Source: Candidatus Poribacteria bacterium
GTDB taxonomy: Bacteria > Poribacteria > WGA-4E > WGA-3G
DNA length: 64,000 nucleotides
Assembly: GCA_965215265.1 (NCBI GenBank)
Contig: OZ244048.1
Location: 1-64,000 of the forward strand
Direction: 5' to 3'
The notes under the pieces are model-generated. The model had not been told where the DNA came from. It saw only the letters and a program-made list of their open reading frames with translations, and searched no databases. Below are positions 22,623 through 24,296 of the stretch, piece by piece (positions within the stretch are counted from its first letter, which is position 1; each line of letters begins with the position of its first letter). The translations under genes were made by a program, and so were the position numbers.

Positions 22623-22632
22623 GATGGACTAC

Positions 22633-22661
22633 AGTATACCTTTTTTTTAAAAAAGAATCAA
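22633..22661 (-). promoter_or_regulatory. Promoter immediately upstream of the MOSC gene (near-leaderless mRNA)
   Basis: Minus strand TTGATT, 17 bp spacer, TATACT; -10 box ends about 10 nt before the ATG. Confidence 0.55.
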
Positions 22662-22703
22662 GCATGTCTCCAACCGCCCCGGTCGATTAACGTATCCCAA
22701 CAT

Positions 22704-23183
22704 TCATGTCAGCCCAAAAACTGCTGCGTGCCGGCAGGCAGCCTCCGTGGTCCATGCCTTTGACTTGCCAACTCTGTCGCAGAAACGGGTAGGTGGGCAG
22801 CACCCCAATACACACTCGGATTCGGGAGTTAGAATCAATTTGTCATAATGGCTGACCTTCTTGACCCAATCCCATTTCTCAAAGGGCGCTGTTTCTTTAA
22901 AGTCTCGCAAATTCCGGAATGGAAAGTTCAGCTATGTATTGAACCGTTTTGGGGAAACCCTGCAAAGATTTATGCAGGGTATCAACCTCATAATCCTTGA
23001 TGACCAGGGAATCTCATCCGATCTGAAGAAACTAAGATGCCTCGAAAATGGCTCATTGATTGTATCAACTTCAAGGTGATGTCTGCTTATATCAAGTAAG
23101 TAGGAAGTTCCGGAACGATGTTGTCCTAACAAAACGAAATTCGTATCACTAGTCCTCTCTGTCGACATCCTGCAGCCTCTCAC
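22704..23183 (-). pseudogene. Sulfotransferase remnant (frameshifted)
   Basis: FVLLGQHRSGTSYL PAPS-binding loop and INEPF; the continuation (DFKETAPFEK) is in another frame. Confidence 0.6.
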
Positions 23184-23758
23184 AAACGAGAAAAATAAAG
23201 ATTTTCTTGAATAAAAGGCACCAATGCAAACGTTACGCCTTGAACATGATTTTTCAACCTATCAACTTTACCTTTTGTCAAAAATCCAATAGCCCCATAT
23301 TTTTCCTTCGTAGAGTTATCTTTAGCGAGATCATCAATGACATGTCCCAATTCTTTTCCAGCAAAAAGTTTCTCGGATATCCCATCGGGCAATTCATAAA
23401 GTCCTGTTGTCCCAAAACTGTATCGATTGTGTTCATCTAAAATATAAATCACACTAAAACTAAACCACCTATTATGCAATCGAAGAATACCGCCTTCGAT
23501 TCCAACAAAAAATGTTGCACCAAGGTTCTGTTCATGATTTATTCGCTTAACGTTTTCAGCACGGTTTTGGGCTCCTTTAAATGTATCTTCATTAACAGGC
23601 TGACTGGAAACCTCTGAATCAACGAGCATCCCTTCAACCTCTATATCCTTGAAAAATTTAGAAAAACTTTTCCTGACGCTCTCAATTTTTATCGGATTTT
23701 CGGAGCCCACCAAGACTCTCATAGGGATATCCTGTGTGTGTCGATTGTTTTCGGCCAT
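23180..23758 (-). CDS. yjjX: Inosine/xanthosine triphosphatase
   Basis: VGSENPIK, SEVSSQP, GAQNRA, VGIEGG, KELG, GAIGFLT; GAGGAGG RBS; locally AT-rich. Confidence 0.9.
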   Translation of the reverse strand: MAENNRHTQDIPMRVLVGSENPIKIESVRKSFSKFFKDIEVEGMLVDSEVSSQPVNEDTFKGAQNRAENVKRINHEQNLGATFFVGIEGGILRLHNRWFSFSVIYILDEHNRYSFGTTGLYELPDGISEKLFAGKELGHVIDDLAKDNSTKEKYGAIGFLTKGKVDRLKNHVQGVTFALVPFIQENLYFSRL

Positions 23759-23894
23759 GCGGCACCTCCTCAAGGTTTCACTACAAGTGGTGTGTATTGT
23801 GATACAATTCAACGAGTGCTGCTATATCGTAATTCTGATAGGGTTTTCCGCGTAGGTGGGTGTGGTTTCGACTGGAGGGCCCCTCTAAAAAAGA

Positions 23895-24048
23895 GGGAAT
23901 TCCGATGGAATTAAAAGGCGTGCTGGCAAAGCACACCTGCGTTTTTTTCACCGTTTCGATTCCAAATTGGTGCGATTAAAAAAAGCGTATCGTTCAGCCC
24001 TGATGGCCCGTAAAGGTTGTTTTGATTCCAAACTGGTACGATTAAAAG
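23895..24048 (-). CRISPR. Orphan mini-CRISPR array, type I-B-like repeat: two 30 bp repeats, one 36 bp spacer, possible degenerate third repeat
   Basis: Plus strand GTTTCGATTCCAAATTGGTGCGATTAAAAA (23953-23982) and GTTTTGATTCCAAACTGGTACGATTAAAAG (24019-24048), 26/30 identical; spacer 23983-24018; degenerate copy ending ATTAAAAG at 23917, 35 bp away. Confidence 0.75.
23910..23938 (-). terminator. Hairpin plus U-tract closing the mini-CRISPR transcript
   Basis: Minus strand AGGTGTGCT-ttgcc-AGCACGCCT-TTTAATT (9 bp stem, one G-U pair). Confidence 0.55.
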
Positions 24049-24068
24049 ACACTCTAAAATTGATATAT

Positions 24069-24098
24069 AGTATACCACAAACTTATGCTGCTTGTCAA
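24069..24098 (-). promoter_or_regulatory. sigma70 promoter reading into the mini-CRISPR
   Basis: Minus strand TTGACA, 18 bp spacer with TG extension, TATACT; 20 nt upstream of the first repeat. Confidence 0.75.
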
Positions 24099-24296
24099 GT
24101 TAATTTTTATTGTTCTCTATTGTTTTAATTGCGTTTCTTCTTGTCCATGGTTTGCATCACATTCCACAGTATGCGAGTTTCGTTGTAGATCTTAACCCAT
24201 TGTGCTGACAGTAGCGTAGCCGTTGCCTCGAAATCGAGTGCTATGGATCTCTTTGTAAGTTGTGATGGTTGCAGTTTTTTGCGTTGCAGCTTTAGA

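Follow-up and report, generated by a model that had tools for sequence, protein, structure and literature searches.

A cas-less mini-CRISPR array in a poribacterial chromosome is probably a stranded fragment of the resident type I-B/III-A system

An isolated type I-F array lying 1.3 Mb from its cas genes, whose leader is almost the same as that beside those genes, is active in both interference and adaptation (PMC13142298). That precedent lends plausibility to action in trans by the small array that we consider below. Mini-arrays have also been described in other roles. They regulate type I-B, I-E, I-F and V-A systems, and the described elements sit within CRISPR-cas loci (10.1101/2023.03.10.532045, 10.1101/2023.03.03.530964, PMC9458426). 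Viruses, too, carry such units: virus-borne mini-arrays, solitary repeat units (SRUs) and RNA anti-CRISPRs have one or two spacers and repeats that match the host system (PMC8616872, 10.1101/2024.10.29.618823).

Here we compare with these systems a small CRISPR unit found in the window, by which we mean the whole stretch of 64,000 nucleotides that was analysed and with which a single-contig genome of 4.83 Mb begins. A sequence-only reading of the window had taken the unit for a self-contained, single-spacer element, possibly a CreA/CreR-like regulator or an RNA anti-CRISPR (Racr). The presence of a mini-array without cas genes in the 64-kb window is explained once the whole genome is considered. 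The reading that we favour, with a probability of roughly 0.65, is that this is an orphan mini-array belonging to the resident I-B/III-A system. On this view it came from the leader-proximal end of an older array, was stranded by rearrangement ~500 kb from the cas genes beside a relocated yjjX gene, and probably acts in trans via Cas6.

The mini-array itself is real. On the minus strand it runs, in order, through an A/T-rich tract, a promoter, 20 nt of leader and then R1, S1, R2, S2 and R3, the whole feature spanning ~23865-24111 and being wider than the interval 23895-24098 in which it had been noticed. The features of the locus are as follows.

24062..24111, minus strand: copy of the core leader (A/T-rich tract plus promoter), recognized by homology to three other leaders in the genome.
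24098-24069, minus strand: sigma-70-type promoter, TTGACA (24098), 18 nt, TATACT (24069), with TG extension; consensus score 11/12.
24048-24019, minus strand: repeat 1 (R1), a variant copy, 27/30 to the main-array consensus; it would supply the 8-nt handle ATCAAAAC.
24018-23983, minus strand: spacer 1 (S1), 36 nt; over nt 12-36 it is the antisense of a sequence coding for the WD40 motif SVSFSPDG.
23982-23953, minus strand: repeat 2 (R2), near-canonical, 29/30 to the consensus; handle ATCGAAAC.
23952-23918, minus strand: spacer 2 (S2), 35 nt, containing most of the 9-bp hairpin.
23938-23908, minus strand: terminator-like hairpin and TTTTAATT; the stem-loop (23938-23916) has 9 bp (5 G-C), a 5-nt loop and a folding energy of -13.6 to -14 kcal/mol.
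23917-23888, minus strand: repeat 3 (R3), a degenerate terminal repeat at the expected spacing, 35 nt after R2; 14/30 ungapped.
23180..23758, minus strand: yjjX-type NTPase gene (Pfam PF01931, E = 2.6e-48), with its start ~107 nt downstream of the array remnant.
22632..24290, no strand: 1.66-kb segment (1659 bp) comprising the mini-array, yjjX and ~550 bp without family match; not present in the related genomes G001 and G004, where the two flanking genes adjoin.

Most of the layout seen by the sequence-only reading withstood closer inspection: two repeats flank a 36-nt spacer, R1 and R2 differ at four positions, and a 9-bp hairpin and a degenerate third repeat follow. The repeat pattern of R1 is not expected by chance (0 matches expected, 100 shuffles), and the lengths of S1 and S2 (36 and 35 nt) fit the spacers of the main array of this genome, which measure 33-40 nt with a mode of 36 (168 of 169 intervals, plus one of 73 nt). 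On the other hand, the second repeat had been regarded as the changed copy, whereas the scores against the 170-copy consensus (R2 29/30, R1 27/30) indicate that R2 is canonical and R1 is the variant; R1 carries three substitutions, one of them within the 8-nt handle, and R2 carries one. The initial 8 nt of R3 are identical to the consensus while the remainder decays, with a possible TCGAAAC remnant ending at 23865. Since S2 is followed by R3 at exactly the expected spacing, the unit consists of three repeats and two spacers, the last repeat being degenerate, and not of a single spacer between two repeats. The position of a variant R1 beside a canonical R2 further shows that no spacer has been gained since R1 mutated. 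One of the variant bases of R1, G16, is the canonical base in the repeat of the related genome G006.

The cas locus and the canonical repeat to which the mini-array relates lie elsewhere in the same genome, ~480-500 kb from the mini-array (24 kb). A cas6/III-A/I-B locus with its array occupies 505-536 kb and includes the main array of 170 repeats at 524242-535579. Directly upstream of this array are cas6 (506.8 kb), a type III-A module (cas10/csm1, csm2-5 and a TM1812/csx1-like gene) and a type I-B module (cas8b1, cas7, cas5, cas3, cas4, cas1 and cas2), together covering 506.8-524.0 kb. Matches of cas6, csm1-5, cas8b1, cas7, cas5, cas3, cas4, cas1 and cas2 to NCBIfam models exceed the curated cut-offs, and the genes are intact, so a cognate Cas6 is available in trans. 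The earlier assignment of the repeat to type I-B is upheld in that the same repeat forms the array beside cas8b1-cas7-cas5-cas3-cas4-cas1-cas2, in a locus that also has cas6 and csm genes. The canonical repeat ends in ATCGAAAC and is essentially unstructured when folded; a 3′ end of that form together with little structure is typical of I-B/III-A repeats that are cut 8 nt from the 3′ end. Elsewhere the genome encodes a type I-D system, which has a cas6 and an array to itself (1462-1482 kb), and a type III-B system with cmr genes (2677-2686 kb); a further array lies at 622.4-624.1 kb. I-B + III-A, I-D and III-B loci coexist here with at least four repeat families. Spacer 11 of the main array has hits at 3910.4-3910.7 kb. 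The statement that no cas gene lies in the window agrees with a search limited to the 13 Cas proteins of the I-B/III-A locus, none of which had a tblastn match (E <= 1e-3) in bases 1-64000.

A CreR-like candidate was observed within the cas locus, between the III-A and I-B modules (L009:10247-10460). It has at least three pseudo-repeats, which match the consensus at 19-20 of 30 positions, and its own TTGACA-17-TATAAT promoter. Its 32-nt pseudo-spacer matches a site just downstream of the -10 element of the next promoter at 10 of the first 12 nt and at 19/32 positions overall, a total of 19 identities being reached in 14 of 300 shuffles. R1 and R2 of the mini-array are far less degenerate than these pseudo-repeats.

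The relationship between the mini-array and the main array extends to the leader. The TTGACA/TG-TATACT promoter, described as strong in the sequence-only reading, is real and is the sole 11/12 site between positions 23000 and 25000, where seven sites scoring at least 9/12 were observed against 3.2 +/- 1.6 in shuffles. The same promoter precedes the 170-repeat main array. The earlier impression that there is no room for a normal leader did not survive this comparison, as the 49-60 nt upstream of the mini-array share 88-92% identity with the core leader seen at the main array and in its other copies. Aligned with the end of the main-array leader (524176-524224), the mini-array copy is 91.8% identical over 49 nt; a six-repeat array at 4319.8 kb has a leader that agrees with it at 92% over 50 nt, and the copy at 4751.2 kb agrees with it at 88% over 60 nt. 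The -35 and -10 hexamers and the TG do not vary among the four copies, and where the mini-array leader departs from the main one, at four positions, it does so within the promoter spacer. The main leader is ~225 nt long, of which the mini-array keeps just a core of ~50-60 nt. The -10 hexamer is 20 nt from the first repeat in the mini-array and 22 nt in the main array, so that the short transcribed leader is a trait of the family and not a peculiarity of the mini-array. Among 40 relatives, the promoter core (<=3 mismatches) was detected in G006 alone, in two copies, each before a large array. The promoter-bearing leader core of ~60 nt behaves as a portable module, with four copies in the genome, one of them before an unrelated repeat.

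Taken together with the resident cas genes, these features outline how the mini-array might work. The leader promoter would fire ~13 nt before R1, placing the predicted transcription start near 24062. The single Cas6 linked to the I-B/III-A locus, encoded at 506.8 kb, would then cut R1 and R2 8 nt from their 3′ ends and release one complete crRNA made of the handle AUCAAAAC, the 36-nt S1 and 22 nt of R2, which could be loaded into Cascade (I-B) and/or Csm (III-A). From the S2 unit, with its hairpinned guide and the degenerate R3, one would expect at best an ill-formed second crRNA. Part of the transcript would stop at the hairpin and the short U tract, and the rest may run into yjjX. Acquisition of spacers by the mini-array would have ceased. 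Judging from the sequence, transcription of the mini-array probably continues, as does cleavage of its RNA by Cas6 acting in trans.

The hairpin straddles the boundary between S2 and R3. Its T run is short, and termination is therefore probably leaky. Moreover, S2 is in the upper tail of folding stability without being unique, 7 of 168 main-array spacers folding at least as stably; the hairpin may thus have arisen by chance, and we do not claim an evolved terminator. The fold of the whole mini-array transcript is not unusual either (z = -1.63). In Rfam, the repeats gave only sub-threshold matches to CRISPR-DR2 (25.4 and 22.2 bits vs a gathering score of 37) plus two spurious miRNA matches, and no riboswitch or known sRNA was detected upstream of yjjX.

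Comparison with related genomes sheds light on how the mini-array came to its present place. Both in G001, which belongs to the same genus, and in G004, from another genus, the gene for a DUF1932/NAD-binding dehydrogenase is followed after ~70-120 nt by a MOSC-domain gene; the remaining seven of the nine relatives' loci examined have unrelated sequence 3′ of the dehydrogenase gene. The yjjX gene is 76% identical to its G001 copy and the neighbouring genes are 78-80% identical, a similarity that fits the relocation of a resident gene and not import. In relatives yjjX is situated elsewhere, and at all six loci compared the similarity is confined to the coding region, with no repeat-like sequence (<=7 mismatches in 29) within ~2.5 kb of the gene. 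Conservation of the mini-array upstream of yjjX was considered and rejected, given that none of the six relatives has a repeat near yjjX. The profile scan of eight ORFs around the mini-array returned metabolic or transport families or no family, and its flanks are chromosomal genes that are syntenic in relatives.

Repeats of the mini-array family are also scattered over the rest of the chromosome. Six further loci with one to four repeats each lie at 935.5, 2273, 3923, 4318.5, 4463 and 4751 kb, and some of them are clearly broken. The 4751-kb locus is a sister unit, having the leader core, three repeats and two spacers, and is positioned where synteny with relatives stops. Of the variant bases in the repeats of the scattered fragments (A11, T11, G16 and A26), some are also those of the canonical G006 repeat, which points to old array material rather than to fresh copies of today's main array. 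In line with this, a recent duplicate of the main-array end was rejected as the source, since S1 and S2 occur nowhere else in the genome and both the leader and R1 have diverged. At five of the seven scattered repeat loci the array and the downstream ORF share orientation, which is uninformative. It is the six scattered loci, the absence of the segment in G001 and G004, the sister unit at a synteny break and the G16 of R1 that argue for an origin by array fragmentation. As to the possibility, raised in the sequence-only reading as a ground for refutation, that the unit is just the eroded end of a long array, the comparison with relatives and the scattered fragments indicate an array fragment, though one from the leader-proximal end.

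The mini-array is fixed and static across samples, with no special constraint evident. We compared the window with contigs from four other runs (X5, X6, X8 and X9), which come from other studies. A single X8 contig spans 23871-24407 with one difference. The X6 contigs are ~1% diverged; two of them abut in R2 and between them reproduce the layout of the unit, S1 differing by one SNP (position 20) and S2 not at all. X5 has an unchanged yjjX-R3-S2-R2 arrangement, and the X9 contigs fall outside the mini-array. Both spacers are accordingly conserved across strains where they are covered, S1 being present in two of the four runs and S2 in three. The 247-nt unit accounts for 2 of the 25 substitutions listed for X6 and for 9.5% of the 2601 nt compared; substitutions are thus as dense there as in the flanks, and purifying selection is not evident.

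What the spacers might recognize was addressed by several searches. Exact-match scans found no protospacer of nt 1-28 of S1 or S2 in viral contigs and none of S1 nt 1-26 or S2 nt 1-28 in metagenome contigs; since these collection scans demand exact matches, diverged protospacers would escape them. S1 with N at five wobble positions revealed no protospacer in one-genome-per-species contigs. When full S1 was compared, with <=3 mismatches, with 176 genomes of the phylum, its own genome matched and the other 175 were blank. Nor did the spacers point to the cas genes. No 5′-anchored match of at least 9 nt links S1 or S2 to the I-B/III-A cas locus, and across all three cas loci only one match of this kind turned up, a low-complexity 10-mer that S2 shares with the I-D array region. 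The best ungapped identities of S1 and S2 to the three loci are 18-21 of 35-36 positions, the top one being 21/36. The host cas promoters and viral contigs, where the sequence-only reading had proposed to look for a target, yielded neither a protospacer nor a seed match beyond chance. Genome-wide, the 5′-anchored matches of S1 comprise one 13-mer and two 12-mers, roughly what we estimate chance to produce in two strands totalling 9.7 Mb.

A different kind of match was found for the 3′ part of S1. The reverse complement of nt 12-36, AGC GTA TCG TTC AGC CCT GAT GGC, encodes SVSFSPDG, a WD40 motif, and this part of S1 is antisense to 22 genomic sites in WD40-repeat genes of the host, distributed over at least seven chromosomal regions (25 nt, <=4 mismatches). 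By BLAST, the WD40 part matches best at 2493873, with 23 of 24 positions identical. The first 11 nt of S1, on the side of the handle, match none of the 22 sites, and the best total is 26/36; read in the WD40 frame, these 11 nt add one more codon and then a stop. On this basis, S1 was most likely taken from a WD40 gene. Interference by type I-B systems depends on the seed, and with its 5′ mismatch S1 should leave the present WD40 genes of the host safe from it. In type III systems, a 5′ mismatch geometry permits binding of target RNA and cleavage of its backbone without Cas10 activation. One could then imagine that the S1 crRNA is not immune memory at all, but a fixed type III-A guide against host WD40-repeat mRNAs, expressed from a promoter that also feeds yjjX. 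We regard this idea as a long shot. If true, the mini-array could trim the expression of a whole family of WD40 repeat proteins without autoimmunity. The antisense match would matter only with small-RNA and target data in support.

Several other explanations deserve to be weighed against an orphan mini-array that acts in trans. Much of the evidence above would also suit an inert relic, that is, a decaying fragment that is unexpressed, or expressed without consequence, and whose crRNAs do nothing. No target was found for S1 or S2 in the collections searched, SNP density in X6 is no different from that in the flanks, spacer turnover is absent, the first repeat is mutated and the last degenerate, and the unit is missing from the closest relative; in addition, the six other scattered fragments indicate that such debris is common in this genome. 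Against a relic of this kind stands the intact promoter (11/12, with TG), whose hexamers are the same in four paralogues despite a drifted spacer. Two of the repeats are still near canonical, and the cognate cas6 and both effector modules are intact; should the promoter fire, processing would follow by default. On balance, we consider an inert relic unlikely. The neighbouring gene offers another interpretation, in which the chief effect of the unit is that the strong leader promoter drives the relocated yjjX, while Cas6 cutting and the hairpin modulate its mRNA. The mini-array and yjjX are on the same strand with only ~107 nt between the array remnant and the start of the gene, they came together in the 1.66-kb segment, and the short T run would let transcripts pass. 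There is no other promoter-like site of at least 9/12 on the same strand from 24069 to the yjjX start codon, but a promoter scan based on consensus only misses weak or non-sigma-70 promoters. The basis of this interpretation is purely positional, and the shared orientation at five of seven scattered loci is unremarkable. Since yjjX is free of the repeat in all six relatives, the gene does not need the mini-array, and a role as promoter and 5′-UTR donor seems quite improbable.

The sequence-only reading had placed the unit among regulatory or decoy crRNA-like RNAs, either as a CreA/CreR-like repressor guided by Cascade or as a Racr-like RNA that titrates Cas6/Cascade. Its small size, its own strong promoter, the one variant repeat and the constancy of both spacers across samples are what one would look for in such an RNA, and mini-arrays with regulatory functions have been described for several CRISPR-Cas types, type I-B included. 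Nevertheless, the regulatory elements in the reports cited above sit within CRISPR-cas loci, whereas the mini-array is ~480-500 kb away from its cas locus. A CreR-like repressor would also be expected to pair with a promoter in that locus; neither spacer has a 5′-anchored match of 9 nt or more there, the genome-wide seed matches of S1 are at about chance level, and the canonical place between the III-A and I-B modules is occupied by a better CreR-like candidate. As to the decoy version, the mini-array is not on a virus or plasmid but among chromosomal housekeeping genes. We therefore find a regulatory or decoy function very improbable and return to the orphan mini-array of the I-B/III-A system.

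By itself, the unit adds another example to the orphan mini-arrays and alters little. It does offer a natural test case of whether Cas6 cutting and effector loading still work when the leader-proximal repeat has three substitutions, including one in the handle.

Overall, the mini-array resembles isolated or orphan arrays in that its repeats match, its leader copies the cas-adjacent one, and it is located hundreds of kb from the cas genes in a rearranged or acquired segment. It is unlike them in being far smaller (two spacers), in having a mutated R1 and a degenerate last repeat, and in keeping only a leader core of ~50-60 nt with no sign of ongoing acquisition. Of the traits of an isolated array, the repeat consensus (R3 in its first 8 nt only), spacing, leader homology and intact cognate Cas6 and effectors were all observed; foreign targets, in the collections searched, and acquisition were not. 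With CreA/CreR (PMC9458426, 10.1101/2023.03.10.532045, 10.1101/2023.03.03.530964), the mini-array shares two repeat-like sequences around a spacer, its own promoter and a type I-B context. It departs from them by lying outside a CRISPR-cas locus, by having no partial spacer complementarity to a cas or cargo promoter, by repeats that seem barely degenerate and by not being conserved in related genomes. Like virus-borne mini-arrays, SRUs and RNA anti-CRISPRs (PMC8616872, 10.1101/2024.10.29.618823), it combines few spacers with repeats of the host system and could in principle compete for Cas6 and effectors; unlike them, it is chromosomal and lies between housekeeping genes, with no viral or plasmid gene among the ORFs tested in the 1.66-kb segment. 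Membership of either the CreA/CreR or the Racr group is not supported, and the locus is best read as an orphan or isolated mini-array that arose by array fragmentation.

Fragments with the 30-nt repeat family of the main I-B/III-A array are scattered over the chromosome (G000:C1, the single contig of this genome), and at one further locus a close copy of its leader precedes a different repeat. The features considered here include the following.

G000:C1:4319420-4319999 (L034, L027): orphan array with an I-B-like leader and six repeats
G000:C1 at 935.5, 2273.1, 3923.5, 4318.6, 4463.4 and 4751.1-4751.3 kb: six additional fragments of the I-B repeat family, 1-4 repeats each
Window 22632-23183: remainder of the inserted segment, with an 83-aa and a 68-aa ORF
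L009:5192-5905 (G000:C1 about 510.2-510.9 kb; L009 is the stretch holding the cas locus): Csm2 ORF
L009:10247-10530 (G000:C1 about 515.25-515.53 kb): degenerate mini-array between a csx1-like gene and cas8b1

The 4319-kb orphan array has a 225-nt leader that shares 96% identity with the leader of the I-B array, and its six copies of a 29-nt repeat are unrelated to the I-B repeat and occur at no other place in the genome. On the leader (upstream) side of this array, a stretch of about 16 kb contains no cas gene, and the neighbours there include malate and isocitrate dehydrogenase genes. Among the scattered fragments, the 3923-kb and 4751-kb loci have in common a 24-nt pseudo-spacer (21/24 identical) flanked by repeats, and a duplicated promoter (TTGACT...TATCAT) lies upstream of the 2273-kb locus.

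Two spacers of the main array match the chromosome that carries them. Spacer 11 does so twice at 3910.4-3910.7 kb (G000:C1:3910388-3910706; 28/28 and about 30/32), and spacer 96 is identical at 36 of 37 positions to G000:C1:623045-623081, inside a separate array at 622-624 kb. These matches suggest self-targeting or a resident mobile element, as well as the presence of one spacer in two repeat families.

Neither short ORF of the inserted segment has a match in Pfam. The 83-aa ORF may be a gene fragment, because its GQHRSGTSY motif resembles a sulfotransferase N-terminus. Gene order is strongly scrambled relative to the closest relatives (whole genome against G001, a member of the same genus; L021, L022); the genes that flank yjjX in G001 have their counterparts here at 2.23, 0.35 and 2.98 Mb.

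Within the cas locus, the predicted Csm2 ORF seems to combine two domains: a CspA/CspE-like cold-shock domain on the N-terminal side (residues 49-111) and, after it, the Csm2 domain (residues 153-234). The degenerate mini-array of the same locus comprises at least three pseudo-repeats, each matching the consensus at 19-20 of 30 positions, and a TTGACA-17-TATAAT promoter. Its 32-nt pseudo-spacer matches a neighbouring promoter at 10 of the first 12 nt and 19/32 in total, an identity equalled in 14 of 300 shuffles; the matched site lies directly 3' of the -10 hexamer in the promoter belonging to a 140-aa ORF that precedes cas8b1. Judged from its sequence, this mini-array is a candidate for a CreR/CreA-like element, that is, a crRNA-like regulatory mini-array located inside a CRISPR-cas locus.
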